Source: a phage
Sequence record: PZ151149.1
DNA: 64,000 nt
Reading direction: 5' to 3' (one strand)
Positions 10,895 to 62,912 of this stretch are shown piece by piece. A program made the translations under genes and the position numbers. Every line of letters starts with the position of its first letter. Within the stretch, counting starts at the first letter, position 1. Under the pieces are notes generated by a model. It was given only the letters and a program-made list of their open reading frames with translations, ran no database searches and was not told where the DNA came from.

Positions 10895-10933
10895 ATGGGA
10901 GTATCTTACTACTCCCTTAATCCGGTGTCAACT
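10895..10933 (-). promoter_or_regulatory. early promoter with stem-loop (PeSL-like cassette)
   Basis: Minus strand TTGACA, 17-nt spacer, TAAGAT; inverted repeat GGGAGTA/TACTCCC flanks the -10; ~20 nt upstream of the ATG at 10869. Confidence 0.6.
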
Positions 10934-10938
10934 ACTTT

Positions 10939-11151
10939 TTAATTTTTACCCGCTCGTGCATTAATACGCATTTTCTGCATAGCCATGATCTGGTTTACTG
11001 CTTCTTCTTTACGTTCTTGCGTGATAACGTGACCAGATTCCGCAAACTCTCCAGAGACCTCTTCCACGATCTCGCGAACTTGAGAACGTCCAAAGATGCG
11101 GTTTCCTTCGTAGCTCATAAACTCTGTTACTACTTGCTCGATAGATTTCAT
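10939..11151 (-). CDS. hypothetical protein
   Basis: 70 aa ORF behind a PeSL-like cassette and AGGAGAATCA SD. Confidence 0.5.
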   Translation of the reverse strand: MKSIEQVVTEFMSYEGNRIFGRSQVREIVEEVSGEFAESGHVITQERKEEAVNQIMAMQKMRINARAGKN

Positions 11152-11172
11152 GTGATTCTCCTTTCGTTTGGT

Positions 11173-11211
11173 ATGGGAGTATCTTACTACTCCCGTTTCT
11201 TTACGTCAACT
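11173..11211 (-). promoter_or_regulatory. early promoter with stem-loop (PeSL-like cassette)
   Basis: GTTGAC -35, GGGAGTA...TACTCCC hairpin around the -10, then AGGAGAATCAC SD and ATG. Confidence 0.6.
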
Positions 11212-11216
11212 GGTTT

Positions 11217-11717
11217 TTAGAAATTTTTCGCTTCTTCTTCGGTCATCATAACCGCGCATTCGTGCATAACTTTGAAAACCGGATCAATCATGTCGAATGC
11301 TTCGCGAGACAGTTTACGAGAAGCGATTTTGATTGCTTCAACGTCTTCTACTACAGGAACAAAAACAGTTTTCAGTTCATCGAGCACGGCAGCTTCTTTT
11401 TCATTCAGGAAGATTCCAGCGTCGTACAGTGCAACTTCGATAACATTAACTTTAACCATTTTTATTTCCTCCAGTTCGTTTCGGTATGGGAGTATAATAC
11501 TACCGATGACCTTTGGCGTCAACTGCTTTTTATTATTTTCGTGAAAATTTTTCGTTGCCTCTAGGTTCTTTTCGACCTTCATCCATTCCGCGTATTCTTG
11601 CGCGGCTACTTTCGGATTTAGTCCGTCTTCGTACATTGCTTCAAGTAATTCTTCGTCGGTGGGCTTATACCCTAAATAAGCCTCCACCTGATTTTTCCAA
11701 ATTTTATACCAGTTCAT
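11217..11717 (-). CDS. hypothetical protein; may be two genes, with a second start at 11459
   Basis: Single open frame, but a complete PeSL-like promoter and a GGAGGAAATAAAA-ATG start (11459) lie inside it in frame; first ATG at 11717 has a GGTGA SD. Confidence 0.45.
   Translation of the reverse strand: MNWYKIWKNQVEAYLGYKPTDEELLEAMYEDGLNPKVAAQEYAEWMKVEKNLEATKNFHENNKKQLTPKVIGSIILPYRNELEEIKMVKVNVIEVALYDAGIFLNEKEAAVLDELKTVFVPVVEDVEAIKIASRKLSREAFDMIDPVFKVMHECAVMMTEEEAKNF
11480..11523 (-). promoter_or_regulatory. early promoter with stem-loop, embedded in the ORF
   Basis: TTGACG, 17 nt, TATTAT; stem CGGTA/TACCG; followed by strong SD and ATG at 11459. Confidence 0.55.
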
Positions 11718-11721
11718 ATTA

Positions 11722-11994
11722 TCACCAATCAAGAGCGCGTGTCTCTGCGTCTTCCCATGCTTGATTCATAACAGCATTGAAAACATATTCTAAAGTATCA
11801 TCTTTAGAGAATCCGAAGATTTTAGACGGAATATCTTCAATTGCTACTCCCGCAACTTCTGCATTACGTGCTTGGCAATAATGCAACTCTAAGTTATCGA
11901 GATAGCGACCGCCTAATTTCTCCATATCATCCCAGCATTTCCAGTAACCTACTTTATTTGCAATTGCTAACACTTTGCTGTTTTCGTTGCTCAT
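11722..11994 (-). CDS. hypothetical protein
   Basis: 90 aa; AGGAGAATCAAAG SD; PeSL-like cassette upstream. Confidence 0.5.
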   Translation of the reverse strand: MSNENSKVLAIANKVGYWKCWDDMEKLGGRYLDNLELHYCQARNAEVAGVAIEDIPSKIFGFSKDDTLEYVFNAVMNQAWEDAETRALDW

Positions 11995-12014
11995 CTTTGA
12001 TTCTCCTGTTGTTT

Positions 12015-12057
12015 CGGTATGGGAGTATTATGCGGTGCTGGATTATGGAAGTCAACA
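12015..12057 (-). promoter_or_regulatory. early promoter (PeSL-like)
   Basis: GTTGAC, ~18-nt spacer, CATAAT, then ACTCCCATAC and SD; A-tract upstream. Confidence 0.6.
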
Positions 12058-12061
12058 ACTT

Positions 12062-12095
12062 TTTAAAATAAAAAGCCGACCACAAGGATCGGCTT
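12062..12095 (-). terminator. rho-independent terminator
   Basis: Minus strand AAGCCGA-tccttgtgg-TCGGCTT then TTTATTTT; same stem as the plus-strand terminator at 1133. Confidence 0.6.
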
Positions 12096-12500: not shown

Positions 12501-12503
12501 AAT

Positions 12504-19006: not shown

Positions 19007-19088
19007 TAGATTTCTGCAATTTTTTTCACAAAATTTTTGGGTTTCTTCATTCTTAAACGGTTTCATATAAGTCAACCTTTTGTTTTCG

Positions 19089-19126
19089 ATGGGGATATTA
19101 TGCTATATCCCCGATCTGGTGTCAAT
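19089..19126 (-). promoter_or_regulatory. early promoter with stem-loop (PeSL-like)
   Basis: TTGACA, 17 nt, CATAAT; stem GGGGATAT/ATATCCCC, a compensatory variant of the GGGAGTA stem. Confidence 0.55.
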
Positions 19127-19134
19127 AACTTTTT

Positions 19135-19434
19135 TTAATCTTTTTTCAGTGCATCCATTACTCGCTCTGCGATCAGTTCTCTTAAGCACTGATAACCATG
19201 ATATTTGATGGCAATGTCACGCAGATCATTAACCAGTTCCCGTACTTCATGGTCTTTCAAATCGTCTCTGTATTTCGATTTAACCGTGTCTTTAGGTGGA
19301 TTGCGGATAACCTGAAAACCTTGTTCTGCAATCACTGCGGCTTCTCGCTGACGTTCATGCTGTACGGTGTTTTTGATCAGGTCCGCTTCCATGAACTTTG
19401 CCATGCTCATCATCATGTTATTCTTTTTGCTCAT
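19135..19434 (-). CDS. hypothetical protein
   Basis: ORF 19135..19470 trimmed to the ATG at 19434 (GAGGA SD), because the track start lies inside the promoter hairpin. Confidence 0.5.
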   Translation of the reverse strand: MSKKNNMMMSMAKFMEADLIKNTVQHERQREAAVIAEQGFQVIRNPPKDTVKSKYRDDLKDHEVRELVNDLRDIAIKYHGYQCLRELIAERVMDALKKD

Positions 19435-19455
19435 TATTAAATCCTCATAAAAGAA

Positions 19456-19497
19456 AAGGGAGACTCCCATTATAGAGAATCTCCCTTGTATGTCAAG
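19456..19497 (-). promoter_or_regulatory. early promoter with stem-loop (PeSL-like)
   Basis: TTGACA, 16-17 nt, TATAAT; stem GGGAGA/TCTCCC. Confidence 0.55.
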
Positions 19498-19501
19498 TGT
19501 T

Positions 19502-21325
19502 TTAGCTACACATCCACTCTTTACGGCGGTCTGAATCTTCGCTATAGAGCAAATCGAATAGCTCTTTATAGTTTTCTGGTAACGTGATGATCTCCATTAC
19601 AGGATCGTTGATAACGCGATGATAATCTGATTCTGTAAGCGATGCTAACCCTTTAATATATCGAATGTTATAACCTTTGATATTATCTCGATCGTTCTCG
19701 AAATCTTCTAGGTCATAATACCATCGAACATCATCACCTTTCTTTGGTTCCGCAATGATAATAGGTGTTTTGATAAACCGGATTCGTCCATCTTCGAACA
19801 ATTCAGGCCAACGTGCAAAGAAAGAGATCAGACTAGGTTTAATAGACCCGATCCCGTCGGTATCCGCGTCGGTCATAATCGCAATATTTTTGTATTGCAT
19901 AACTTCCAATGCATCAACACCAAATTGCAAGCCAGTGATCGCCATGATGTTAAAAATTTCGGCGTTCTTAACGATCTTTGCCTCCGGTTGTTCCCACGTT
20001 GTAAGAGTTTTGCCTCGCAACGGGAAACCTCCATGTAAATCTTGATCACGTACAGAGATCAGATAGTTGATCGCGGAATCACCTTCCGTCAAAAACAGGG
20101 TAGTTTCTGCGTCAGTTCCAATAAGGTTAGCTTTAACGTGTTTTGCTACCTTAGCCCGTTTTGCTGCCTTTGCTGCCTTAGTCGCTGCCGCTTTATCTGC
20201 TGCCTCTTTGCGTGCCAGGACTACAGCAATAATAGGCATGATAATGTTTTCTTTCTTCGCAATGACTTTAGCCAGCTTTTTAAAATCAAGATCAATATGA
20301 CGCTTGATATCACCAGTTGGATTAGTCAATCGTTCTTTTGTCTGTGAATCAAAACGAAGGTTAGGCAATTCACGAACAATAAGAATACAGGTCAATCCAG
20401 ACTTAACCGCAGCTTTAGTAACATCAACCTTATATTCTTTCTTGATTCGTTTTACAATCTCTTCACAAAGATCATCTGTCACGTAGTCTACGTGGGTTCC
20501 CCCGTTTTTGGTAAACAGACCATTAGCAAAGGATACTGATTTAAAACCTTCACCCTCAACCGCAGGAACTAGAGCAAGTGAAAAGTTTTTATCTTCGATG
20601 ACAAACGGATCATCATTGTATAGTTTAGCATAGTCCTTGAACTTGCTGGTTATCTTTTTGCCATTAAACTTAAACGTGATCTTAGGAAAGATTACACTTA
20701 AGGAATACATACGGTCACAAATTACATCTGAAATTTCTTGTGACATGATCATGCCTTCAAAATGATCGAAATCAGGGCAGAATGTAACCTTAGTCCCTTT
20801 CAGCTTTGATGGTTTAGATGACCAACTAATATTTTCAGCACCATTGGTGCATTGTACGGTCAATTCATTCTCACCATCGCATGTCACACCAGTAAACCAC
20901 GATGAGAAAAATGATGTGAGAGCGCTTCCTATCCCATTCATCCCCATAGTGACACGATTTGTATCATCAAAGTTAGATCCTGCTTTAGCTCGTGTCCATG
21001 CAGCCACTGGTTGGGGAATCTGTTTCCCTTCTGGTGTAGTGACTATATGTTGTGGAATGCCGCGACCGTTATCTGTTACCGACACAATGTTATCTTTGAT
21101 ATCTACGCTAATAACATTAGCGTATTCAAAATTAGTGCGGATCGCTTCGTCTACCGAGTTGTCGATAATCTCATCAATAATTTTAACTAGACCTGGAACA
21201 TATGATACTTTGGTCCATTTTCCAAAAAGGAAACGATTATGTGATTCATAAGTCGTTGACCCGATGTACATTGAAGGTCTTTTAAGACAGTGAGCGCGAT
21301 CATCTAACAGCAAAAATTCACTCAT
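19502..21325 (-). CDS. 39: DNA topoisomerase II large subunit (GyrB-like, genes 39 and 60 fused)
   Basis: 607 aa, single uninterrupted ORF; GHKL ATPase motif DNGRGIP; roughly T4 gp39 (516) plus gp60 (160). Confidence 0.9.
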   Translation of the reverse strand: MSEFLLLDDRAHCLKRPSMYIGSTTYESHNRFLFGKWTKVSYVPGLVKIIDEIIDNSVDEAIRTNFEYANVISVDIKDNIVSVTDNGRGIPQHIVTTPEGKQIPQPVAAWTRAKAGSNFDDTNRVTMGMNGIGSALTSFFSSWFTGVTCDGENELTVQCTNGAENISWSSKPSKLKGTKVTFCPDFDHFEGMIMSQEISDVICDRMYSLSVIFPKITFKFNGKKITSKFKDYAKLYNDDPFVIEDKNFSLALVPAVEGEGFKSVSFANGLFTKNGGTHVDYVTDDLCEEIVKRIKKEYKVDVTKAAVKSGLTCILIVRELPNLRFDSQTKERLTNPTGDIKRHIDLDFKKLAKVIAKKENIIMPIIAVVLARKEAADKAAATKAAKAAKRAKVAKHVKANLIGTDAETTLFLTEGDSAINYLISVRDQDLHGGFPLRGKTLTTWEQPEAKIVKNAEIFNIMAITGLQFGVDALEVMQYKNIAIMTDADTDGIGSIKPSLISFFARWPELFEDGRIRFIKTPIIIAEPKKGDDVRWYYDLEDFENDRDNIKGYNIRYIKGLASLTESDYHRVINDPVMEIITLPENYKELFDLLYSEDSDRRKEWMCS

Positions 21326-21424
21326 TATTAAACCTCTTCATAACATAACCATAACTTACTGCAACCGCCACAAAGACGGCTGCAACAATCATATTAAAAA
21401 TTGAGTGATTGTCAAGTATATGAC

Positions 21425-21598
21425 TCATGACACGCGCACATTTTTATCATAATACCCGCCATTAATCCCGCGCGGGGCAGTTAATCCCTGTTTACATTCT
21501 TTCCCACATTCAGGACATTCTGCCTTTTCACGCTCGGAAATTTTGCGGATTTTCTGAAATTGACCGTGTTCTTCACAAGAATAATCATATAATGGCAT
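21425..21598 (-). CDS. zinc-ribbon protein (FmdB-like)
   Basis: 57 aa from the ATG at 21598 (AAGGGG SD); YDYSCEEHG...CPECG pattern. Confidence 0.55.
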   Translation of the reverse strand: MPLYDYSCEEHGQFQKIRKISEREKAECPECGKECKQGLTAPRGINGGYYDKNVRVS

Positions 21599-24397: not shown

Positions 24398-25152
24398 TAT
24401 AAACCTACCTTCGCTTTCATCAATTCAATCCACGACGCATCAATCGGAAGCCCGTATTTCACGCGTTCTTTTTGTGCTGGCGTTAAGTTCTCATACTTAG
24501 AAAGAGATTCAATCAAAACGCTGGTATATTTTAGCACGATTTCGGTATTGTTTGCAATAGCCTTAAGTTTTTCTTCTTTCTTGTTGATTTCGCTAAGGGC
24601 TTGCTTGAGATCTGCAATTTTCTGATAACGTTCTTCCATACGGAAGAGAGTATTTTTAATCGCTCTCTCGGCTGCCTCTGCTTTCTCCGGTTCGTTGTGC
24701 TTTTTGTGGCGCTCGATTGCTAATTTCTTTTCTTCGATTGCCATTTCCTGATTTTTGATGCGATTCTCGTTAAGTTCGATCCACTCGATGTACTTCGCAC
24801 GTAGGGCAATTTCATCATCAGAAAGTTTACCGTTAGTTCCTAGTTCCTGGATCTCTTTAAGAGATTCGATAGTGTGATTACCACGGAAAGAATTGTATTT
24901 CAGTTTAACTGGAATCACATTGCCATCAACATATCCCAGATTGCAATCAATACGCTCTAAGGAGAGTCCATCATCACCTTCACCAAACTCCTCACCTGAA
25001 TATGCGCAATGAGTCTGGCGATAGATGTTACGCACAGTGACTAAGCTCATAGAGAAGTCTTTGTTACGACGAGAAGCGCCAGCCATGATAGAGTTCAGAC
25101 GGAAAACAACCAGCGCCAATTCTTCGTTAGATTTAAAAGCAAACAGTTTCAT
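24397..25152 (-). CDS. hypothetical protein with C-terminal coiled coil (Srd-like by position and size)
   Basis: 251 aa; N-terminal Cys/Gly-rich segment, C-terminal E/K-rich heptads; position corresponds to T4 srd; no sequence match verified. Confidence 0.5.
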   Translation of the reverse strand: MKLFAFKSNEELALVVFRLNSIMAGASRRNKDFSMSLVTVRNIYRQTHCAYSGEEFGEGDDGLSLERIDCNLGYVDGNVIPVKLKYNSFRGNHTIESLKEIQELGTNGKLSDDEIALRAKYIEWIELNENRIKNQEMAIEEKKLAIERHKKHNEPEKAEAAERAIKNTLFRMEERYQKIADLKQALSEINKKEEKLKAIANNTEIVLKYTSVLIESLSKYENLTPAQKERVKYGLPIDASWIELMKAKVGL

Positions 25153-25179
25153 AATTGATTCTCCTTAGTTGGTATGTGT

Positions 25180-25211
25180 GTATTATTGTCTATCTGGTTT
25201 GTGTTGTCAAC
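25180..25211 (-). promoter_or_regulatory. early promoter (sigma70-like)
   Basis: TTGACA, 17 nt, AATAAT/TAATAC; followed by AAGGAGAATCAATT-ATG. Confidence 0.5.
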
Positions 25212-25213
25212 AC

Positions 25214-25717
25214 TTAAATTAAAGAAAATTTGTAAATCTCTATCAGGTCGCCATTGCACGCGTAAACTTCCTCAATCTCATCAAGGATCATGGTCGTCCC
25301 TGTCTTGTATATGCACTCGCGCTCATCCGCCAACATAGCATACAAAGACAGTCGAGTAGTCGGATTGTCATATTCTTTAGACACCACTCGGTCAATAGCA
25401 TGTTCGTAATAATTCATGCAAGGCTTGGTGGGTTTTATTGCAATAATCTTTCCTGTTGCATAAACATCGGTTGCAAAGTCCTCTGCTGTTGATTGCAGTG
25501 GCGTAAAGCTCATAGGACGCTCTACAACGAAAGAATCGCCTACAATTAAGGTATCCAGCTTACGACCTTCTCTTTTGCTCACACCGCGATACAAGGCTTC
25601 GTGATGCACTAACCGCTCAGTCTTTTCAATCAATCCATTAAGGATCGACATATCGATATTTTCTTTAGAGTTCATCACTTCATCAATGATGTTAAGTTCT
25701 TCTGGTGTGAATTGCAT
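25214..25717 (-). CDS. hypothetical protein, possible ADP-ribosyltransferase (Mod/Alt-like)
   Basis: 167 aa; candidate R-S-E triad (YRG, QST, ERE) and position next to dda as for T4 modA/modB; motif-level only. Confidence 0.5.
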   Translation of the reverse strand: MQFTPEELNIIDEVMNSKENIDMSILNGLIEKTERLVHHEALYRGVSKREGRKLDTLIVGDSFVVERPMSFTPLQSTAEDFATDVYATGKIIAIKPTKPCMNYYEHAIDRVVSKEYDNPTTRLSLYAMLADERECIYKTGTTMILDEIEEVYACNGDLIEIYKFSLI

Positions 25718-25724
25718 AATAAAA

Positions 25725-25780
25725 AAGCCTCCAATCTTTCGACGGGAGGCATAATAAAACCATGATAGAGTAGTGTCAAC
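25725..25780 (-). promoter_or_regulatory. early promoter plus 5'-UTR hairpin containing the SD
   Basis: TTGACA (25774-25779), 17 nt, TATTAT; then GCCTCC-cgtcgaaagatt-GGAGGC hairpin whose 3' arm is the GGAGG SD of the gene starting at 25717. Confidence 0.45.
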
Positions 25781-25798
25781 TATAAAGTGTATGTGATC

Positions 25799-25806
25799 TA
25801 TAAATA
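25799..25806 (+). promoter_or_regulatory. T4-type late promoter TATAAATA
   Basis: Exact TATAAATA about 30 nt upstream of the endonuclease ATG at 25837. Confidence 0.5.
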
Positions 25807-31605: not shown

Positions 31606-31625
31606 AATATAATCCTCTCTAGATA

Positions 31626-31650
31626 TGAAAAAGGGGCACGTAGCCCCTTT
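31626..31650 (-). terminator. rho-independent terminator after uvsX
   Basis: Minus strand AAAGGGGC-tacg-TGCCCCTT then TTTTTCA. Confidence 0.55.
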
Positions 31651-31660
31651 ACTACCATTG

Positions 31661-43373: not shown

Positions 43374-43619
43374 TTACATACTCCACGATTCACGAGCAAT
43401 AACATTCTGGGTAATATCAGCAACCTTACGGGATACGATGTTTGTTAGCCCCTCTTTGGTGATATTTTCACGATCAAATGGGATTTCGTCATGAGTCCAT
43501 AAACCATAGTTAGACCGAAATGATAGCATATACTGACCATCTCGCACAACCTCAAATACATGGATCTTAGTGAATTTCGACAAACCTTCGTTGATTTCTT
43601 TCAGTGCATTAGTAATCAT
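43374..43619 (-). CDS. hypothetical protein
   Basis: Start taken at ATG 43619 with GGAGG SD (track start was TTG 43631). Confidence 0.45.
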   Translation of the reverse strand: MITNALKEINEGLSKFTKIHVFEVVRDGQYMLSFRSNYGLWTHDEIPFDRENITKEGLTNIVSRKVADITQNVIARESWSM

Positions 43620-43642
43620 AACAACCTCCAATCAATTTTTAG

Positions 43643-43674
43643 AGAGTATAACGGGGATTTCTCCCCGCGTCAAC
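43643..43674 (-). promoter_or_regulatory. early promoter with stem-loop (PeSL-like)
   Basis: TTGACG, hairpin CGGGGA-gaaa-TCCCCG in the spacer, TATACT; the -35 overlaps the gp47 stop. Confidence 0.55.
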
Positions 43675-50914: not shown

Positions 50915-51050
50915 TTACCCCGAACTCGTTTACAATCTGCGCTTTATAGTAACCGCCGCGAGATGCTAATAGATAAGCTGGGCTTAGGTATTCGTATTCA
51001 CGGATTTCTACTTGTGCGTTTTCAGTTTCCCAAATCAGTAAAGTCCACAT
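50898..51050 (-). CDS. hypothetical small protein
   Basis: 50 aa from the ATG at 51050 (AGGAGAATCAAAT SD); the track start lies inside the promoter cassette. Confidence 0.4.
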   Translation of the reverse strand: MWTLLIWETENAQVEIREYEYLSPAYLLASRGGYYKAQIVNEFGVIEYEF

Positions 51051-51089
51051 ATTTGATTCTCCTGTAAAGTTGTATCTCGTCTTGATGAA

Positions 51090-51122
51090 TATAGTATAGG
51101 GGATCTCGCGATCCCCGTCAAG
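51090..51122 (-). promoter_or_regulatory. early promoter with stem-loop (PeSL-like)
   Basis: TTGACG, hairpin GGGGATC-gcga-GATCCCC in the spacer, TATACT. Confidence 0.55.
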
Positions 51123-51125
51123 CAT

Positions 51126-51674
51126 TTATTTTAAATTTTTTCGAATGTATTCAGACCATTCCTTCCCCGTCATTTCGGACCCATTCTGGAAACTGAAATA
51201 TTCATACGGCATCGAGTCAAGATAAAACAGGATCATACATCGCGCCATATAATACCAATCACGATTAAAGTAAACTACGTTATCACCAGTACCATCAACC
51301 CCTTTATCATAACCATCGCGGGTACGGGCTACCCATTGAATAGTATCATTTTTCTCACGGATAGTAACAGGTTCCCAATATCCAGCACATCCAGCATGAC
51401 CACACGAACAAGTAAGGAAGTATTGGCCTTTTGCTTTGTTGTCATCCCATTCACGATGGATTGGTTTGATCTCGTGAAACAGTGCCAAGCAATCATGATT
51501 ATGCAACACTGGCTTACCATCAATCAATGCATGGAATGTATACAAACGACCAGTAGACAAATAGCTATCCTCACGCTCACAGAGTTCAATAGCAATCTTT
51601 TTAGCTTGTTCTTTGTGCCGTTGTGCTTTACGCTTACGGTTTAATGATTTCATATTCACCTCACACATTATCAA
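51126..51674 (-). CDS. hypothetical Cys/His-rich protein
   Basis: 182 aa; CSCGHAGCAGYW segment. Confidence 0.5.
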   Translation of the reverse strand: MIMCEVNMKSLNRKRKAQRHKEQAKKIAIELCEREDSYLSTGRLYTFHALIDGKPVLHNHDCLALFHEIKPIHREWDDNKAKGQYFLTCSCGHAGCAGYWEPVTIREKNDTIQWVARTRDGYDKGVDGTGDNVVYFNRDWYYMARCMILFYLDSMPYEYFSFQNGSEMTGKEWSEYIRKNLK

Positions 51675-52216
51675 AGGTCGCGATATAGCACATTATGAAA
51701 ATGAGAACTTGCATTACCAATATTGTAGATAATAAATTCTTCATCCGGCGCTTGCGCTACAAATTGAGTATGAGCAACCGCTACAACCTTAAAAATACGA
51801 TCCGTAATCTTGTGTTTAATTTCTGCTCCTACTTCCATAGGAACATATTCATGTGTTTCTGTTTCAGTCGCAAAACAGCTATCTTCTTCATAAGCACGAA
51901 CAAATCGATCGCAATCAGTACGCTTAACAAATTCAAGAGTATATAATTCTCGTGAATTGTCGGTATAGACCAATACAGAATTATTCTGATAGCGAATCAC
52001 ATACAGGTTATTATCATCGTCAAGTACACAAAAGCTACGGATTTGTGTTCCTTCGCCTTTACTCCAGCAGATATTAACCACGGTTCCTCTAATAAAAAAA
52101 CTTTCCTTTAAATTAAAACTAGCCAATGTGCTAGCGTGCATTTTAACAACAACACCATCACCAATTTCCAGTTTACGAAGTTTAACTTCTTTGCTCAGTA
52201 CACAAAACATCATCAT
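51671..52216 (-). CDS. hypothetical protein
   Basis: 181 aa; GAGAGGA SD. Confidence 0.5.
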   Translation of the reverse strand: MMMFCVLSKEVKLRKLEIGDGVVVKMHASTLASFNLKESFFIRGTVVNICWSKGEGTQIRSFCVLDDDNNLYVIRYQNNSVLVYTDNSRELYTLEFVKRTDCDRFVRAYEEDSCFATETETHEYVPMEVGAEIKHKITDRIFKVVAVAHTQFVAQAPDEEFIIYNIGNASSHFHNVLYRDL

Positions 52217-52243
52217 GTTGTCCTCTCGTTGTTTTCGATGTGA

Positions 52244-52274
52244 GCATTATACATTAGCTAATCAGGTTGTCAAC
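52244..52274 (-). promoter_or_regulatory. early promoter (sigma70-like)
   Basis: TTGACA, 16 nt, TATAAT on minus strand, just downstream of the nrdD terminator. Confidence 0.5.
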
Positions 52275-52287
52275 ACCCCAAAACGAA

Positions 52288-52312
52288 AAAGCCGACCCTT
52301 TCGGATCGGCTA
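52288..52312 (-). terminator. rho-independent terminator after nrdD
   Basis: Minus strand AGCCGA...TCGGCT hairpin followed by TTTTCGTTTT. Confidence 0.55.
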
Positions 52313-54223: not shown

Positions 54224-54718
54224 TTATTTTACCAGTTCTGCTAATTCTTTTTCCGCCGCTTCCAGTTCAGCTTTCAGTTGTTTGATCTCTTGTCGCTTCT
54301 TATTAGCGGCTTCCTGCTTACTATTTCGGATAATCTGATCTAGATACAACTCCCAATCCTGAATATTTTTGATAATGTAGCCGTCAACATTAATTGGTCG
54401 GAGATTCAGTACAGCTTCCAGTTTAGTTGCAAAAACTTTAATTGCTGGTGTGAAGTATTCATATTCGTTATCTTCAAACCAATAACCTAGACTTGCATTA
54501 TCAATACTAAGACGAAGTTCAAGATCAAGGTCTTTATCTTCGGTGTATAGGTCTTTTACACCCCCCATCGAACCAACAACAACTTTAAAACGAATTTTAT
54601 CAACACCACCAAACACATCAGTAAGGATACCAGCAATTGAGCTATTAGCGCAAGATTGGTCGCTGAATGCGTCAAGGTTTTCTTTAGTTACAGTATACCA
54701 AACATCTTGTTTCCACAT
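54224..54718 (-). CDS. modular paralog family member (divergent)
   Basis: 164 aa; C-terminal coiled coil KQLKAELEAAEKELAEL; PeSL-like cassette upstream. Confidence 0.5.
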   Translation of the reverse strand: MWKQDVWYTVTKENLDAFSDQSCANSSIAGILTDVFGGVDKIRFKVVVGSMGGVKDLYTEDKDLDLELRLSIDNASLGYWFEDNEYEYFTPAIKVFATKLEAVLNLRPINVDGYIIKNIQDWELYLDQIIRNSKQEAANKKRQEIKQLKAELEAAEKELAELVK

Positions 54719-54740
54719 AATATAATCCTCTCGTTGTTAA

Positions 54741-54777
54741 GTGGGAGTATTATAGCATACTCCCTTCGCATGTCAAG
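54741..54777 (-). promoter_or_regulatory. early promoter with stem-loop (PeSL-like)
   Basis: TTGACA, TATAAT inside the loop of GGGAGTA...TACTCCC; then GAGAGGATTATA-ATG. Confidence 0.6.
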
Positions 54778-55951
54778 CACTAACTTTTTTCTTTACTGCT
54801 TTCACCTTCTGGCGAATTGCTCGAATCTCTTCGATCTCTTTTTCAGTCTCTTTAACAATTTCTTTGCGATTCTGAATATCTGTATCGAGATTATCATCAA
54901 GTTTAGGCAGCATGTCAATCAAGAACTTTTTAAAGTCTTTCAGGTTTCGAATAACAGCACCTTCGCCCATTACCGCAACACCCACACCATCCGGCAGATC
55001 ACCAAACAGCTTAACCAGTTCAGACAGATGATCATGATCTTCTAGTGCTTCTTCCGGTTCAGATGGCAGTTCAACAAAGTTATAACGTTCATCATTGCTG
55101 ATCAAGTGATACCAGCAAAGCCCGAAAGATTTCGGTGTATATTCTACACCATCAATTTCAACCGCGTCAACACTTCCATAATCATCTACTTTAGTTACCT
55201 TAAATCCTTGTCCCAGCTTTTGAACAATTTCAACAACATGACTTGATACAGTTTCAGCGGTAAACCAATATGGCAAATTATGCTGATTTGGCTTGTAGCG
55301 TTCACCTACTTTAAATCTCTGACCATCCGCTTGCATAGAATGAAATTGTTGTTTCGTGATTTCCGCGAAGTATTCAAATTCGCCACCATCAAACACACAA
55401 GCCCATTGATCACAAAAACGATCTGCCTTAACAGTTTCACCTTTCGCGGTGATCATGGTAGCTGATCCGTGCAATTCTTCTTCAACTAAAAAGCCATATT
55501 CGACAAAATCAACAAGTTTCATAGCTTCTTTGTGATCTGGATCATGCTCTCCCCAGAATCGCTTAAATTCTTGCAAACCTTCTGGGGTAAACGAATAACA
55601 TTTACCTTTTTCAAAGTAAGTCGGCATTGCATCCTCTTTCTTGTTCATCGCTTCGTATGCCTCTTTTGAGATACGTTTAAAGTATTTGCGCTCATTGTGC
55701 ATAATCATAGTAGACCAATAATAAACGATATCCTCAGCGGAATAAACTACATCTCCAGCTTCAATAGTAATAACATGACCGTGGTCATCTTTTTCTAATA
55801 CTTTAAAGCCCTTTTCTACGATTTCAGCAACCCGAATATGACCACGGCGCGAAGCATCGGTCAGATTAATTGAATAGCGAGAAAAGTCTAGAAACTCATC
55901 TTTACCACCTTCACGGAATGCATAGTAATGACCTTCAAAGAATTTAGCCAT
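54773..55951 (-). CDS. modular paralog family member (three tandem modules)
   Basis: 392 aa; repeated GF.V..VD..G.V..IEIDG...ERKYFKRI modules and C-terminal NLKDFKKFLID coiled-coil region. Confidence 0.55.
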   Translation of the reverse strand: MAKFFEGHYYAFREGGKDEFLDFSRYSINLTDASRRGHIRVAEIVEKGFKVLEKDDHGHVITIEAGDVVYSAEDIVYYWSTMIMHNERKYFKRISKEAYEAMNKKEDAMPTYFEKGKCYSFTPEGLQEFKRFWGEHDPDHKEAMKLVDFVEYGFLVEEELHGSATMITAKGETVKADRFCDQWACVFDGGEFEYFAEITKQQFHSMQADGQRFKVGERYKPNQHNLPYWFTAETVSSHVVEIVQKLGQGFKVTKVDDYGSVDAVEIDGVEYTPKSFGLCWYHLISNDERYNFVELPSEPEEALEDHDHLSELVKLFGDLPDGVGVAVMGEGAVIRNLKDFKKFLIDMLPKLDDNLDTDIQNRKEIVKETEKEIEEIRAIRQKVKAVKKKVSA

Positions 55952-55975
55952 AATATAATCCTCTCGTTGTTTAAA

Positions 55976-56012
55976 TGGGAGTATCTTACTACTCCCGTTT
56001 CATCATGTCAAG
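55976..56012 (-). promoter_or_regulatory. early promoter with stem-loop (PeSL-like)
   Basis: TTGACA, GGGAGTA-gtaaga-TACTCCC, then GAGAGGATTAT SD. Confidence 0.6.
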
Positions 56013-56592
56013 CGTTAAATGACTTTTGGATCTCTTTCAGTTCAGCTACTTTATCGGCGCTGAATTTAGCGTAGGTATCATGTCGAATAATTTCACTTTC
56101 GAGAAAGGTTTCCAGCCGAGATCTATTTTCAATAAGGAACTCTTTCAGGTCTTCCGCGTTCTTGATAAAGATTTTATTGTCAGTAATGTCATCTTCAATC
56201 GCAAAGGAGATCGAGCGAACTTTACCAAACAAGTTAATCAGATCTTCCAGAGATTCTTCTTTCTTAATTGGTTTCATTTCTTCAAACTGCTTTTTAGTGA
56301 TTCGTTTAAAGTATTTGCGCTCGTTTGCAGCAATCAGAACAGATGCACCTTCATACTCATGAGTTTCTACCAGATACACACGCCCCATCGCATCAACAGT
56401 GAGAACTTTAAAGCCGTTACAAAGCACGTCATACAAGAACTTATTATGTTGCGGACATCGTTTGATAAATTCCTCTGCGGACTCAGCATTACGGAAAGTG
56501 TAATAACGACCTCGTTCAAAAACAGCATCAGTTGAAGACTTAGCCGGATACAATTTATACGTTTTCTGTACCATAATATAATCCTCTATCAT
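56008..56592 (-). CDS. modular paralog family member
   Basis: 194 aa; NGFKVLTVD..G.V, ERKYFKRITK, AEDLKEFLIENRS blocks shared with 54773..55951. Confidence 0.55.
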   Translation of the reverse strand: MIEDYIMVQKTYKLYPAKSSTDAVFERGRYYTFRNAESAEEFIKRCPQHNKFLYDVLCNGFKVLTVDAMGRVYLVETHEYEGASVLIAANERKYFKRITKKQFEEMKPIKKEESLEDLINLFGKVRSISFAIEDDITDNKIFIKNAEDLKEFLIENRSRLETFLESEIIRHDTYAKFSADKVAELKEIQKSFNA

Positions 56593-56861
56593 TTCACTAA
56601 TTGAACAGCACGAAACAGAATGCGGTCACACGGAAGAAGCATAAATTCCCAACGCGAATCAAAGTCTTTAGCGGTATATGTTTTCCCATCAACCGAGATT
56701 TCACTTACATAACCAATAGGTGACACTTTAAGAACAGTAAACCCATTCTTGATGACTTCGTAGGTATCTTTCAAACCTTCGTAGTCATCCTCTAGGAAGT
56801 CTTTACGTGCTTGCTCAGATTTAAAAACATAGGCCACACCGGATTTAAACATCTTACGCAT
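56589..56861 (-). CDS. modular paralog family member (single module)
   Basis: 90 aa; KSEQARKDF...NGFTVLKV...SVDGKTY; AAGGAGAATCAACA SD. Confidence 0.5.
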   Translation of the reverse strand: MRKMFKSGVAYVFKSEQARKDFLEDDYEGLKDTYEVIKNGFTVLKVSPIGYVSEISVDGKTYTAKDFDSRWEFMLLPCDRILFRAVQLVK

Positions 56862-56884
56862 TGTTGATTCTCCTTCTTGATTAG

Positions 56885-56922
56885 ATGGGAGTATTTTACT
56901 ACTCCCATTTCATGCTGTCAAC
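56885..56922 (-). promoter_or_regulatory. early promoter with stem-loop (PeSL-like)
   Basis: TTGACA, GGGAGTA...TACTCCC hairpin, then SD. Confidence 0.6.
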
Positions 56923-56924
56923 TA

Positions 56925-57413
56925 CTATCTTAATCTTTGTATAAATTGTTTCTTATACTTCTTCGTGATCTCTTCTCTTGTATCCGCGTCACAATAATCG
57001 AAACCTTCTGCGTCCATAATAGCAACCATCTCCGCGCGTGTCAAGCGTGAAAATCGTTTTACTTTATCAACAGCATATTGAGGATGTAAATGATTGTTGG
57101 TGTAGTCTCCTTTGATGTAATTAACATAGTTTGTAGCCCAAACAACGAAGTCAGCACCTAAAGCACCAACACCAAACCGTTTAAAGTCTCCGGTCAACGA
57201 TCCTTCTAGGCGGTTGCAACACGAATGAAGCAATCCCCTTACGCGGCCTTGCCCTTTCCCATCTAGATCGTGATCATGGTCAAGATGGTTTTTGCTCATA
57301 TCCTCAAAAAGTGGCAATTGACAAAGGGGGCAAATGCCCCCTTGTTTTTCGAATAGTTCTTGTTTGTACTCTTTAGCACTCTTAGCAGTCAGTAACATAA
57401 ATTCACCCTCCAA
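56925..57413 (-). CDS. 49: endonuclease VII (Holliday junction resolvase)
   Basis: 162 aa (T4 157); NHLDHDH.L.G...G.VRGLL...CN..EG, Y..N..HP, FSRL..EM blocks match T4 endo VII. Confidence 0.9.
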   Translation of the reverse strand: MEGEFMLLTAKSAKEYKQELFEKQGGICPLCQLPLFEDMSKNHLDHDHDLDGKGQGRVRGLLHSCCNRLEGSLTGDFKRFGVGALGADFVVWATNYVNYIKGDYTNNHLHPQYAVDKVKRFSRLTRAEMVAIMDAEGFDYCDADTREEITKKYKKQFIQRLR

Positions 57414-59774: not shown

Positions 59775-60083
59775 TTATTTCACGTTAACGCCGTCATCAA
59801 TCCAGCCGACGCTATTTGGTTTAACAGTTTTACCATAGGATGCATACTTAATCAAGCATGGTTTAACATCATTATCAAATCTTCCTAAGCGTACTCCCAA
59901 ATCAGGAATATCCATGTATGCGGCTTTATATCCCCATGTACAATATTCAGCATCAATCTCAACCGGACGGCCTTTAAAAGCATATACATCACTGTAACGG
60001 TCAACGATAACATAGCGATAGCCAGCCGGAAGATACACAGTTTCGCCGTAAACTTTAACTGGAGTAGCAGAAGAGATAAACAT
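59775..60083 (-). CDS. hypothetical protein
   Basis: 102 aa; GAGGATTATATT SD after a PeSL-like cassette. Confidence 0.5.
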   Translation of the reverse strand: MFISSATPVKVYGETVYLPAGYRYVIVDRYSDVYAFKGRPVEIDAEYCTWGYKAAYMDIPDLGVRLGRFDNDVKPCLIKYASYGKTVKPNSVGWIDDGVNVK

Positions 60084-60109
60084 AATATAATCCTCACATC
60101 GTTCATTTG

Positions 60110-60147
60110 ATGCGGCTATTATAGGATAACCGCATTTTCATGTCAAC
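60110..60147 (-). promoter_or_regulatory. early promoter with stem-loop (PeSL-like)
   Basis: TTGACA, 17 nt, TATAAT inside the loop of ATGCGG...CCGCAT. Confidence 0.55.
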
Positions 60148-60152
60148 AGTTT

Positions 60153-60461
60153 TTAAAAATCTTCTTCCGGTTTATATCGACCGTCGTCTTCTTGTTTTGG
60201 GCTGAATCCGGTATGTTTGCGCGGTTTAGCTTCCGGCTTACCAGCAATTGATAGACCAAAACATTTCAATCCTTTATAGATCATGACAATTTCTACAATA
60301 ATCCACGTTATAGGCCAGACGATCGCAGCAATACAAAATGCTCCTGTATCGACCTCTTTAGTGTCCTTGTCGAATCTGGCATACAAGCAGAATACAAGAT
60401 ACGAGATCATTGCACCTACCGCCCAGATAGAAAGATTTCTGCCTAACGCGTTTAAATCCAT
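60153..60461 (-). CDS. hypothetical membrane protein
   Basis: 102 aa with two hydrophobic helices. Confidence 0.5.
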   Translation of the reverse strand: MDLNALGRNLSIWAVGAMISYLVFCLYARFDKDTKEVDTGAFCIAAIVWPITWIIVEIVMIYKGLKCFGLSIAGKPEAKPRKHTGFSPKQEDDGRYKPEEDF

Positions 60462-60470: not shown

Positions 60471-60749
60471 TTACATGTCTTGCAGTGCATAAAAGCATTT
60501 TTCTTCGTAGTCGTAGAAAATGTCAAAGTATGCTTTTTCTACATACTCGCCATTGATCCAAGCGGCAGTAACAATCAGGGTAGTCCAGTTAGATCCGCTC
60601 TCAACGGTAAAGGTTTTAATACCCAGCTTCACAGCAAGGTCACGCGCAAACTGGTCGCAACCACGGCAGGAAGTGATATTGGAAGTTTTGATTTTAAAGC
60701 CACCGCGAGTTTTAGAAATTTCTACTTTAGCGAAAGACAGGTTGCTCAT
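60471..60749 (-). CDS. hypothetical protein
   Basis: 92 aa; AAGGAGAATCAAA SD. Confidence 0.5.
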   Translation of the reverse strand: MSNLSFAKVEISKTRGGFKIKTSNITSCRGCDQFARDLAVKLGIKTFTVESGSNWTTLIVTAAWINGEYVEKAYFDIFYDYEEKCFYALQDM

Positions 60750-60788
60750 TTTGATTCTCCTTAAGAAGTGTGTTTCGTTTTGATGTGT

Positions 60789-60820
60789 GTAGTATAGGGG
60801 ATACGTGATCCCCTGTCAAC
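60789..60820 (-). promoter_or_regulatory. early promoter with stem-loop (PeSL-like)
   Basis: TTGACA, hairpin GGGGAT-cacgt-ATCCCC in the spacer, TATACT. Confidence 0.55.
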
Positions 60821-60827
60821 AACTTTT

Positions 60828-61157
60828 TTATGATTTTAGTGAATTAACTACTACATCAAAATGAGGCACAGAGAACACCTTACGAAACACGTATTCATCA
60901 TGTTTAGGAATCGCCCCTAGCCGCTCTATTTCGCTCGCTAACACGATAAACTGTTTATCTGGCGCATCTGTCTTATATGCTTCAACAACGCACGGAAAAC
61001 TCGTTTTAGCGAGTTCGGGATAGTTTTCGGACTCCATCAGGACGATGAATACTCTGTTACATTGATTGTAGAATCCTGTTTTTGATTTCATCAAGTTTTC
61101 TTCTATGTACATTTCGTGCAATCTTCCTTTCATGATTTCGTTGGTTCTTGTCTTCAC
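60828..61157 (-). CDS. hypothetical protein (start uncertain)
   Basis: 109 aa; overlaps the upstream ORF by 100 nt in another frame; an internal ATG start is likely. Confidence 0.4.
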   Translation of the reverse strand: MKTRTNEIMKGRLHEMYIEENLMKSKTGFYNQCNRVFIVLMESENYPELAKTSFPCVVEAYKTDAPDKQFIVLASEIERLGAIPKHDEYVFRKVFSVPHFDVVVNSLKS

Positions 61158-61395
61158 AGTTTACCCATTCAACAAGATCTTTACCTAACTCGAAAGCCCA
61201 TTCTCGGTCTTGCTTTACGTTTTGTAGGTATGGACTTTCCGACACTCGACGAAGTGATGTTGTTGTAACAAGAATGATCCCAGGAATGGTCGGGTGTTCC
61301 TTTCCGTATACAATCGGACGGGAATCACGCTCAACACCTTGTAAGAAGGTATATCCTGAATCATTCAGCAACAAATACATTTTCAGTTCGTTCAT
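61057..61395 (-). CDS. hypothetical protein (3' end uncertain)
   Basis: 112 aa; its C-terminal ~30 codons overlap the next ORF. Confidence 0.4.
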   Translation of the reverse strand: MNELKMYLLLNDSGYTFLQGVERDSRPIVYGKEHPTIPGIILVTTTSLRRVSESPYLQNVKQDREWAFELGKDLVEWVNCEDKNQRNHERKIARNVHRRKLDEIKNRILQSM

Positions 61396-61652
61396 TACAG
61401 CTTCCTCAACCAGTTATTAAAACGAGCAAACAATGATGCTTTTCGTGCTTCTTCTGCTTTACGGGCAAACCTATCCAAGAAACACCATTCATAATCATCA
61501 TTATAAATTCCCTCAAAGGAAGCGCCAGCTTTGCGTAGTTCTCTTGTTGGTATCAAGAAACTATCATAGAAGGGAGTTCCTCTAACAATAATCGGAAGTT
61601 TAACACCTTTCATGAAAGAATATCCGCCATCACCAAAAATTTCAATCTTCAT
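61395..61652 (-). CDS. small protein, tandem paralog 2
   Basis: 85 aa; MKIEIFGDGGYSFMKGVKLPIIV..., paralogous to 61671..61874. Confidence 0.5.
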   Translation of the reverse strand: MKIEIFGDGGYSFMKGVKLPIIVRGTPFYDSFLIPTRELRKAGASFEGIYNDDYEWCFLDRFARKAEEARKASLFARFNNWLRKL

Positions 61653-61670
61653 AATATAATCCTCAATTAA

Positions 61671-61874
61671 TTACACTTCCCAGGCTTCTTTGCTAAGAAA
61701 ACACCATTTATACTCAGGAGAATAACCTTTAATCGGTACGCCAGCTTTGCGTAATTCCTGCGTTTCAACAAGATAATCATGCCCATACGGTCGACCTTCC
61801 ACGATGATAGGAAGTTCAACGCCTTTCATGAAAGAATATCCGCCATTGTCAAAAATTTCAATTTTAATTTTCAT
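61671..61874 (-). CDS. small protein, tandem paralog 1
   Basis: 67 aa; MKIKIEIFDNGGYSFMKGVELPIIV...EYKWCFL. Confidence 0.5.
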   Translation of the reverse strand: MKIKIEIFDNGGYSFMKGVELPIIVEGRPYGHDYLVETQELRKAGVPIKGYSPEYKWCFLSKEAWEV

Positions 61875-62119
61875 TTTACATTATCTCCATAGATCTTTCC
61901 ATCAATATCAATTTCACCAGCGCGAACATCCAGTATAAGATGCGGTAGGTGTATGCAGTTTTCCCAGCCTACGCGCTTCATTTCTTCTACGGTAACGTAA
62001 GCCCATCCGTTCGCTGTAATAAAGTCTACTTCAACCTTAAGAGGAAAGCAAGACTTTTCTATGTCTTCGAATCCAACAATATGTTTTGTTGTTGAATATG
62101 GGATGTATCCGACGATCAT
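61871..62119 (-). CDS. hypothetical protein
   Basis: 82 aa ORF. Confidence 0.5.
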   Translation of the reverse strand: MIVGYIPYSTTKHIVGFEDIEKSCFPLKVEVDFITANGWAYVTVEEMKRVGWENCIHLPHLILDVRAGEIDIDGKIYGDNVK

Positions 62120-62361
62120 TTTGTGATCTCCTTATACTCAACACACCATAAGCGGGTAGCCCATGATAAACGCTCGTAACGCTGGCAGAAATCGGACCAT
62201 AGATATTGTGTGCCGTCCTGCATAGTTGAAATATGCGTTTTCTCTCCCACTTTCACGAAAGAAGTATTAGATTTTGTGATCTCGACCGGAGTATATCCGA
62301 AAGCTGGCGGTATTACTGATTCGTTGGTCTTCATTCTATATTCCTCACTCTTCTGTTTCAT
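62116..62361 (-). CDS. hypothetical protein
   Basis: 81 aa ORF. Confidence 0.5.
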   Translation of the reverse strand: MKQKSEEYRMKTNESVIPPAFGYTPVEITKSNTSFVKVGEKTHISTMQDGTQYLWSDFCQRYERLSWATRLWCVEYKEITK

Positions 62362-62581
62362 TTCTTTTATATGGTACTATAACAGGATTAATACAGCAAG
62401 CACCAATTACGTTATGAGCACCACAATTTAAACATTTATAATCATGGAACTTATTAAGGAATCGACCAAACTCATAACCGACTAACGCCGCATGTACTTG
62501 AGTCTCGATCTCATCCATATCAGCTAATGTTTTAACCTTCATAATATAATCCTCAAATGGTAGTTTTGCGAAGATGGTCAT
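62345..62581 (-). CDS. hypothetical Cys-rich small protein
   Basis: 78 aa; CLNCG...ACC segment. Confidence 0.45.
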   Translation of the reverse strand: MTIFAKLPFEDYIMKVKTLADMDEIETQVHAALVGYEFGRFLNKFHDYKCLNCGAHNVIGACCINPVIVPYKRNETEE

Positions 62582-62843
62582 TACATGCTTTTAATGCATC
62601 AGTCGAGGTGTCATAGCGAGTATTATCATAGCACCAGTAACCATCTGTCAACTGATAAATTAATCCATCCTTTTTAGCTTCGATGAAAGACAATTCTTTG
62701 AAAGTTTCTACTTTCTTTGCTGATACTCCACGATCGCGGCGTTTATACAGTTTAGCTAAAATGCGTTCGGCTTGTTCCTCTTTATCGCCAGACAGATCCC
62801 AGATAATACTGCGGATATGTTTGATTAATTGTTCAGTGGTCAT
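62553..62843 (-). CDS. hypothetical protein
   Basis: Start taken at ATG 62843 (AGGAGAATCAACA SD); the track start 62897 lies inside the promoter cassette. Confidence 0.5.
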   Translation of the reverse strand: MTTEQLIKHIRSIIWDLSGDKEEQAERILAKLYKRRDRGVSAKKVETFKELSFIEAKKDGLIYQLTDGYWCYDNTRYDTSTDALKACNDHLRKTTI

Positions 62844-62881
62844 TGTTGATTCTCCTAGAAAGTGTCGTGCTTCGATGTGTG

Positions 62882-62912
62882 TATTGTGCAATAACACCGG
62901 ATCGCTGTCAAC
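62882..62912 (-). promoter_or_regulatory. early promoter (PeSL-like, weak stem)
   Basis: TTGACA, 17 nt, CACAAT, followed by the conserved SD. Confidence 0.45.

Follow-up and report, generated by a model that had tools for sequence, protein, structure and literature searches.

A family of promoter/stem-loop cassettes, very probably PeSLs, in the early region of a Krischvirus genome

In a 64,000-nucleotide stretch of the phage record PZ151149.1 (the window), we found 22 cassettes, every one of them on the minus strand and upstream of an early gene, that combine a sigma-70 promoter, in most cases a GC-rich stem-loop, a Shine-Dalgarno (SD) sequence and an ATG. These repeated units are very probably the promoter-early stem-loop (PeSL) cassettes of RB49-type T4-like phages, with which they agree feature by feature, and the orthologous sites in RB49 were predicted in 2006. 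The element is already published, so this is a rediscovery and not a new element, and one more Krischvirus genome with PeSLs adds little. The new points are incremental: a breakpoint test against more relatives, a bias towards G·U pairs in the stems, the scarcity of U-tracts, stop codons lying within the -35 hexamer, and the deletion of the gp38 module at a cassette.

The source is a Krischvirus, a T4-type coliphage resembling RB49; the window has ~96% identity to RB49, phi1, JSE and GEC-3S. Megablast searches with the 10-20 kb and 40-64 kb segments matched 59 phage records, all Krischvirus and nearly all at 95-97% identity, with seven records at 90-95% for the 40-64 kb segment and none closer.

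Architecture and identity of the cassettes

Cassettes are labelled here by the first base of the -35 hexamer; the original prediction, which had listed at least 17 copies on the minus strand, gave coordinates of the -10 box or hairpin. All 17 of its sites exist, and 16 are full cassettes (10931, 11209, 11522, 12055, 19125, 19496, 43673, 51121, 54776, 56011, 56921, 60146, 60819, 62911, 25210 and 52273), with the elements in the order it described. An A/T-rich tract precedes TTGAC(A/G/T); a spacer of 16-17 nt separates this -35 from a -10 of the TAnnnT type, and the SD and ATG follow 25-42 nt past the -10. The other site, 19005 (listed as 18974), is a promoter-like match inside ORF004c without an in-frame SD or ATG. 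Six further cassettes were found (21415, 25779, 31692, 33003, 36846 and 38873, with 31692 being weak).

All 22 cassettes have a -35 with at least five of six consensus matches, a -10 of the form xAxxxT with at least four of six (the first position being T in 18), and an SD, an ATG and an open reading frame (ORF) of at least 35 codons 25-62 nt past the -10. The spacer is 16-17 nt long, or 18 nt in 31692. An A-tract is visible in most cassettes, and the sequence upstream of the core copies has an AT content of 0.64-0.86. The cassettes span intergenic gaps of 60-110 nt, and the upstream stop codon usually lies 0-25 nt before the -35; it is ~40-50 nt before the -35 at 12055, 25779 and 52273, and at or beside the -10 in 31692, 33003 and 38873. 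In 54776, 56011 and 60146, the TGA of TTGACA is itself the stop codon of the upstream gene (stops at 54775, 56010 and 60145), so that the coding sequence and the next promoter overlap.

The minus strand has 63 strict promoter matches and the plus strand 7, compared to 18.6±4.2 in dinucleotide shuffles. A lax scan (9 of 12 matches) gave no excess, with 60 sites found versus 55.9±7.9 expected; the enrichment is confined to high stringency and to the coding strand. In an unbiased repeat search, the cassette was the top family, D1, with five copies (10895-10931, 11173-11209, 11486-11522, 55975-56011 and 56885-56921) sharing 68-92% identity over 37 nt, followed by ribosome-binding site (RBS) modules and by D10 (51121 against 60819, 79% over 53 nt). 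The identity reaches positions without consensus function, such as the 5' untranslated regions (5'UTRs) ACTCCCATACCGAAAC and ACACACATC.

Could these be ordinary early promoters and terminators in a tight genome, resembling each other by convergence on consensus, with no exchangeable cassette? The conserved blocks are largely -35, -10 and SD consensus, hairpin position and sequence vary among copies, the lax scan shows no enrichment, and whole-gene insertions and deletions end in intergenic DNA anyway. We nevertheless regard convergence as very unlikely, because it does not predict long identity in spacers, stems and 5'UTRs (as in D1 and D10), a nearly identical 5'UTR at two distant loci, crossover junctions within shared sequence, or hairpins interleaved with the promoter in a way unlike independent terminators.

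As defined by Arbiol et al. 2010 (PMC2839356), a PeSL consists of an AT-rich tract that includes the stop codon of the preceding gene, a -35 and -10 of sigma-70 consensus, a G_n...C_n stem-loop, an SD and an ATG. The stem can precede or overlap the -35, lie in the spacer, or overlap or directly follow the -10. PeSLs flank gene 43, and most are found in hyperplastic regions in front of small ORFs without known function (PMC2839356). The PeSLs of RB49 and phi1 come from phages of the same genus and occupy loci orthologous to those of the window cassettes. Part order and stem subclasses agree, both sets precede small ORFans and flank gene 43 (here with cassettes 36846 and 33003), and both are associated with ORF insertions and deletions. 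The reading of the copies as PeSLs in the original prediction is supported. Nothing essential differs, though the window has its own complement: it carries an extra cassette-flanked ORF at 11210-11566, and one recombinant cassette where RB49 and phi1 have a gp38 and ORF080 module between two PeSLs.

Nolan et al. 2006 (PMC1524935) predicted 51 RB49 early promoters, with a consensus that they state to agree with the 5' ends of RB49 early transcripts mapped by others. At least 13 window cassettes map onto these Pe sites (Table 1), and several window hairpins are on the RB49 TransTerm terminator list of the same study, which treated promoters and terminators as separate features and not as one exchangeable unit. 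The RB49 and GEC-3S records also carry promoter annotations at several cassette sites. The RB49-type consensus has been given as TTGACA-N17-TATAAT with G_n-loop-C_n stems (Comeau, Arbiol, Krisch 2014, PMC4122927). The PeSL and PmSL elements of T4/PST and KVP40/nt-1 described there are also composite promoter/stem-loop repeats at indel-rich hyperplastic sites, but they have T4-type (TTTACW) or Vibrio-phage consensus promoters and AT-richer stems (AGNA/TCNT, A3-4G3/C3T3-4) upstream of the promoter, whereas the window cassettes have near-perfect sigma-70 promoters with stems mostly interleaved with them.

Two RBS modules recur on the minus strand, some copies of each being preceded by a promoter and others not: an extended module, GAGGA(A/T)TATATTATG, with 11 copies and none on the plus strand (Table 1), and AGGAGAATCA-N1-4-ATG, with eight copies on the minus strand only. 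Perfect 12-of-12 sigma-70 promoters are found inside rIIA (-35 start 16551, minus strand) and in ORF002c at 18512, ~84 nt upstream of the rIIA start; the latter corresponds to RB49 Pe:2232.

Stem-loops and the level at which they act

Cassettes were chosen by promoter, SD and ATG only, and their hairpins were compared with those at other promoter-like sites, which are mostly intragenic. The mean folding z is -1.70 in cassettes and -0.45 at the other sites (p=4e-4), and a stem of at least 6 bp with at least four G-C pairs and a loop of 3-8 occurs in 14/22 cassettes but 4/58 other sites (Fisher p=4e-7). Counted in the same way, stems number 0.36 for shuffled cassettes and 1.2 for random windows. 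Fifteen stems folded in isolation are stable, at -10 to -26 kcal/mol (z -2.6 to -7).

Stems occupy all five published PeSL positions (Table 1), and the individual stems named in the original prediction are correct and fold well. Its statement that stems always stay complementary does not hold. A local stem-loop is present in 19 of the 22 cassettes, the exceptions being 11522 (degenerate, with a mismatch), 25210 (none) and 62911 (long-range pairing only); furthermore, 12055 retains only a 3' arm at its -10, and neither this remnant nor that at 11522 folds. Of the variants described as hairpin-poor (at 18974, 25180 and 52244), 25210 does lack a local stem, while 52273 has a hairpin upstream of its -35. 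The hairpin at 31692 would lie within the cassette's own transcript, which makes its membership doubtful.

The suggestion that selection acts on structure is supported by covariation among paralogs and by pair-preserving changes in orthologs. We aligned 23 distinct -10-bracketing hairpins from the window and ten relatives in a loop-centred register, which was forced with artificial flanks; MAFFT by itself had placed the -10 boxes, and not the loops, in register. In this alignment, 97.8% of cells are paired, a figure that is partly built in because the sequences were preselected as hairpins, and 8/8 pairs change on both sides; 0/500 shuffles match this result, and no slid register comes close. 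The alignment shows compensatory diversity and is not independent proof.

The ortholog alignments were anchored on windows and are less biased than the paralog set. (A spanning-tree recount on maximal stems is blind to broken pairs and was not used.) Substitutions per nt are 0.053 in stems, 0.100 in loops and 0.078 elsewhere. All seven stem transitions exchange a Watson-Crick pair and a sense-strand G·T pair, and none gives A·C (one-sided binomial 0.008). There is one G-C to T-A double change, and four transversions and two single-base indels break pairs. At 60819, four loop variants occur over an invariant stem. Loops are often GNRA (GAAA, GCGA), and together with the sense-strand asymmetry they point to a role in RNA and not in duplex DNA.

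The inverted repeats might instead act as duplex DNA, either as operators for early-promoter shut-off or as recombination-protein targets or cruciforms. As with repressor operators, there is overlap between the palindromes and the -10, -35 or spacer, arms made of G-runs and C-runs recur, indels cluster at cassettes, and the PeSL authors raised the idea of a DNA-binding protein for GGGG...CCCC (PMC2839356). However, there are at least six unrelated stem sequences in registers shifted relative to the -10, and hence no common recognition sequence. The asymmetry between seven sense-wobble transitions and no A·C would be meaningless for duplex DNA, the loops are typical RNA tetraloops, and crossovers are no less frequent in the SD, UTR and A-tract than close to the stem. 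We consider a DNA-level role highly improbable; the sense-strand G·U signature favours a role at the RNA level over one for a DNA-binding protein.

In 12/14 scored hairpins, the 5' arm begins 5-30 nt upstream of the predicted start site, so that the hairpin would form only in read-through RNA arriving from upstream. For phi1 and RB49, lacZ promoter and terminator tests and mini-circles have been reported (copies PeSL206/205, 193/192 and 211/210, and ORF192 and ORF210 circles, all outside the window); the stem-loop of phi1 PeSL211/210 cut downstream lacZ as much as rrnB T1 did, and the authors proposed that stem-loops insulate each gene and attenuate transcription from upstream (PMC2839356), a view that the arm positions in the window fit.

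Like Rho-independent terminators, the cassettes have a GC-rich hairpin shortly past a stop codon, and six copies have a T-run (19496, 38873, 25779, 31692, 12055 and 52273). Only 19496 and 38873 have a true T-run among the 14 scored hairpins. Hairpins 51121 and 43673 score four T out of the eight bases past the hairpin, but these bases are the -10 box, and in the remaining scored hairpins 1-3 of the following eight bases are T. Most cassettes differ from Rho-independent terminators in lacking a U-tract and in having the -10 box or the spacer as loop or arm of the hairpin.

For most copies, pausing or 3'-end stabilisation is a live alternative to intrinsic termination. The U-less hairpins could be RNA stability or processing elements that protect the 3' end of the upstream message, like REP or T4 3' stem-loops, a possibility that we entertain tentatively and that is compatible with PeSL identity while changing the mechanism of the stem-loop. 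It would fit the missing T-runs, the location of hairpins 0-25 nt past the upstream stop codon, sense-strand selection at the RNA level and the stability of the stems (-10 to -14 kcal/mol); it fits poorly with the lacZ reduction by phi1 PeSL211/210 (PMC2839356) and with the scoring of some stems as terminators by TransTerm. We think it rather unlikely that the U-less interleaved hairpins are non-terminators that tell transcripts apart by origin. Under such a scheme, hairpins may mark, pause, process or stabilise read-through RNA while RNA from the cassette's own promoter escapes, and some copies (62911) may hide the next gene's ribosome site in read-through RNA. If true, PeSLs would be a general insulation device with a mechanism unlike the published one.

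Hiding of the SD in read-through RNA was rejected as a general property, the accessibility being 0.54 in read-through RNA and 0.58 in the cassette's own RNA (21 cassettes, Wilcoxon p=0.29). Cassette 62911 is the only one with a large effect: its predicted SD accessibility goes from 0.62 in its own transcript to 0.10 in read-through RNA.

Rfam covariance models at gathering score gave no hit on either strand of the 64-kb window. IMG/VR searches, one with the frd.2 protein and one with the exact hairpin GGGAGTAGTAAGATACTCCC, returned three Krischvirus-like contigs only and gave no sign of the cassette outside Krischvirus-like contigs.

Two further structures lie within genes. One, inside frd.2, is a promoter-like site at 55170 that five genomes conserve; its -10 is enclosed by the loop of a 7-bp stem (TGGTGTA/TACACCG), and it resembles an intragenic PeSL. 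In the nrdH coding sequence (47880-47960, minus strand), a stem GGTCGGG/CCCGACC surrounds a consensus -35 and shows G·U-preserving changes in two orthologs, and a second strong hairpin (GGAGGCT..AGCCTCC) lies ~35 nt downstream of it.

Breakpoints at cassettes and gene exchange

The proposal that cassettes promote gene shuffling was supported by mapping breakpoints against ten relatives, six complete (RB49, phi1, JSE, SSG23, JK32 and MIZ6) and four partial. Compared with these, the window has ~21 distinct structural differences with 27 breakpoints. Nine of the 27 lie in cassette footprints, which make up 4.6% of the early region (p=2e-6), an excess that is partly positional since whole-gene indels must end between genes and the long gaps are mostly cassettes. 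The nine include an endonuclease insertion at 21330, inside the footprint of cassette 21415; two further breakpoints, at 18890 and 61652, fall in RBS repeats that stand alone. At five junctions, 17-38 nt of overlapping homology consist of cassette sequence. Comparing cassette-flanked gene content between relatives, as had been suggested, revealed gains and losses of ORFs at cassettes (Table 1). With ten relatives the association persists; the original work on PeSLs had compared two.

At 62820-62856, the window has the single cassette 62911, with a promoter and 5'UTR matching the RB49 PeSL upstream of ORF080 and a coding part that is ORF078. The crossover lies in GGAGAATCAA, which is common to the two PeSLs, and the 1.1-kb module of the gp38 adhesin and ORF080 is missing. 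Cassette 62911 is a recombinant that deleted this module, and with it a host-range gene.

In the account that we favour, each cassette comprises four parts: the upstream stop codon, located within an A/T-rich tract that resembles an UP element (in three copies it falls in the -35); a near-consensus sigma-70 promoter, which unmodified host RNA polymerase would read directly after infection; the GC-rich hairpin; and a short conserved 5'UTR with the RBS module AGGAGAATCA-N-ATG or GAGGATTATATTATG. The cassette's own transcript is predicted to start inside or past the hairpin, which would then act on read-through RNA, most likely attenuating or terminating it, or else fixing and stabilising its 3' end. 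Small early genes would in this way each be insulated and driven by their own promoter. The cassettes would also serve as repeated 30-60 nt patches of near identity within which phage recombination crosses over, and such crossovers would add, delete or swap the intervening ORFs. Every copy in the window would presumably work in this way, and the hairpins without U-tracts would probably terminate and not pause or stabilise.

Apart from the preselection of the paralogs and the positional share of the breakpoint excess, several points count against this account. A GC-rich hairpin followed directly by a U-rich tract, the criterion for an intrinsic terminator, is not seen in most copies, and the lack of a U-tract after most -10-bracketing and spacer hairpins leaves the description 'effective terminator' unsupported by sequence for most copies. 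Loss of the stem at 11522 and at the -10 of 12055 means that the hairpin is dispensable at some sites. The start sites in this phage are predictions. Ortholog stem changes are few (seven pair-preserving, four pair-breaking and two indels), and the homing-endonuclease insertions at 34469-35595, 44700, 53310 and 57718 are unrelated to cassettes. The 'terminator' label itself comes from a single tested copy and merits re-examination.

Lambdoid morons and integron cassettes, an analogy drawn in PMC2839356, are likewise small accessory genes with their own expression signals at permissive intergenic sites. Unlike integron cassettes, the PeSLs have no integrase or attC, and exchange is apparently by general homologous recombination in a regulatory repeat. 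PeSLs are among the few concrete candidates for 'linkers' that let large lytic phages swap accessory genes while leaving regulation intact.

Coordinates and other features of the window

Late tail-fibre and holin genes occupy bases 1-7870 on the plus strand. From ~7900 to the end of the window, there are exclusively early and replication genes on the minus strand, including rIIB, rIIA, topoisomerase, dda, primase, gene 43, 44/62/45, 46/47, 55, nrdD/G, endonuclease VII, dam and many small ORFs. The genes downstream of cassettes are mostly annotated as 'hypothetical protein' in RB49, phi1 and JSE.

Table 1. Cassettes, extended RBS modules and orthologous RB49 early-promoter (Pe) sites.
Feature	Span or positions	Strand	Promoter and start codon	Stem-loop	Locus, RB49 counterpart, relatives
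10931	10867..10953	minus	-35 TTGACA 10926-10931, -10 TAAGAT 10903-10908, ATG 10869	10897-10916, GGGAGTA/TACTCCC, -10 in loop	At least one extra ORF inserted in relatives; breakpoint overlap 10929-10946
11209	11149..11231	minus	-35 TTGACG, -10 TAAGAT, ATG 11151	11175-11194, GGGAGTA/TACTCCC, -10 in loop	Breakpoint at 11210
11522	11457..11544	minus	-35 TTGACG, -10 TATTAT, ATG 11459	Degenerate, GGTAGTA/TACTCCC, one mismatch, -3.6 kcal/mol, z -1.15	ORF between 11522 and 11209 missing in RB49, phi1, JSE, JK32
12055	11992..12095	minus	-35 TTGACT, -10 CATAAT, ATG 11994	Canonical terminator AAGCCGA..TCGGCTT+T-run, 12073-12095, upstream of -35; at -10, 3' arm ACTCCC alone, 0 kcal/mol	Extra ORF in SSG23 and JK32; overlap 11991-12028
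19125	19064..19147	minus	-10 CATAAT, ATG 19066 (ORF004c)	19091-19112, GGGGATAT/ATATCCCC, -10 in loop	Pe:2846; JSE deletion ends at 19084
19496	19432..19518	minus	-10 TATAAT, ATG 19434	19456-19487, 13 bp, -10 is the loop, then T-run, terminator-like	RB49 TransTerm terminator 3163-3190; extra JSE ORF at 19496-19529
21415	21323..21437	minus		21358-21386, just past -10	Upstream of topoisomerase gp39; endonuclease gene inserted at 21330-21339 in JK32 and MIZ6
25210 (srd)	25150..25232	minus	Promoter and conserved 5'UTR ACACACATACCAACTAAGGAGAATCA	No local hairpin	Pe:8927; 5'UTR nearly identical to RB49 PeSL upstream of ORF078
25779 (modB)	25715..25801	minus		25727-25750, GCCTCC..GGAGGC+T6, just past -10 (begins at first base past it)	Pe:9496 and terminator 9430-9453; breakpoint at 25782
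31692 (weak)	31603..31714	minus	Promoter-like site	Terminator 31630-31650, AAAGGGGC..GCCCCTTT, well downstream of -10	uvsX/gp40 junction; RB49 terminator 14433-14447
33003	32929..33025	minus	ATG 32931	32949-32975, directly past -10; extended helix -26.4 kcal/mol	3' end of gene 43; RB49 record annotates hypothetical early promoter at 15776-15803
36846	36783..36868	minus	ATG 36785	36822-36854, TAGGGG/CCCCTA around -35	Upstream of gene 43; RB49 record annotates promoter at 18504-18532
38873	38782..38895	minus		38818-38837, GGGGAGT/ACTCCCC with T-run, just past -10	Upstream of gp44
43673	43617..43695	minus	ATG 43619	43651-43668, GCGGGGA-GAAA-TCCCCGT, inside spacer	Promoter annotated here in GEC-3S record
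51121	51048..51143	minus	ATG 51050	51099-51116, GGGGATC-GCGA-GATCCCC, inside spacer	Pe:33349
52273	52214..52311	minus	ATG 52216	Canonical terminator 52290-52311, AGCCGATCC-GAAA-GGGTCGGCT+T-run, upstream of -35	Pe:34495 and terminator 34499-34518
54776	54716..54798	minus	ATG 54718	54743-54764, GGGAGTAT/ATACTCCC, -10 in loop	Pe:36999
56011 (frd.2)	55949..56033	minus	ATG 55951	55977-55996, GGGAGTA/TACTCCC, -10 in loop	Pe:38234 and TransTerm 38186-38205
56921	56859..56943	minus	-10 TAAAAT, ATG 56861	56885-56908, 9 bp, -10 in loop	Pe:39144
60146	60081..60168	minus	ATG 60083	60110-60135, 10 bp, ATGCGGTTAT/ATAGCCGCAT, one G·U, -10 in loop	Pe:42369
60819	60747..60841	minus	ATG 60749	60796-60814, AGGGGAT-loop-ATCCCCT, inside spacer	Pe:43045
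62911	62841..62933	minus	ATG 62843	Arms 62912-62924 (just upstream of -35) and 62852-62864 pair across whole promoter and cover SD	Recombinant copy, ORF078
GAGGA(A/T)TATATTATG	9775, 10881, 18412, 31617, 47638, 54730, 55963, 56586, 60095, 61664, 62554	minus			
RB49 Pe orthologs					2846, 8927, 9496, 33349, 34495, 36999, 38234, 39144, 42369, 43045, 46502, 158760, 159769

Gene 43 (32993-36785, minus strand) is in two parts of 402 amino acids (aa; 35577-36785) and 468 aa (32993-34399). The insert at 34469-35595 (~1.1 kb) carries a 274-aa ORF (34610-35434) with a NUMOD3 homing-endonuclease-type annotation in JK32, which has the same layout. JSE has a split gene with a shorter insert and without the 274-aa ORF, and the gene is intact in RB49, phi1, SSG23 and MIZ6. 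No group I intron model matched the insert at the Rfam gathering score.

A 309-aa plus-strand ORF (25837-26766, in a region spanning 25782-27186) lies between modB and gene 56. Its counterpart is annotated as a homing endonuclease in JSE, and it is absent from RB49, phi1, SSG23, JK32 and MIZ6. The left breakpoint of this region precedes the -35 of cassette 25779 by 3 nt.

On the plus strand, at 4034-6888, the window differs from RB49 by replacement of the distal end of tail-fibre gene 37 and of three small ORFs that follow it (98, 101 and 100 aa). This distal module is partly present only in G2248, UPWr_E1 and G37-3, at 82-92% identity. The receptor-binding tip and the gp38 adhesin may have been exchanged together in the window genome.

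Direct repeats within coding sequence at 48792-50399 (ORF049-051), 61585-61868 (ORF073-075) and 55644-56325 (two goF/frd.2-like genes) mark tandem paralogous small ORFs. Several of the indels between relatives are located in such paralog arrays, away from cassettes.

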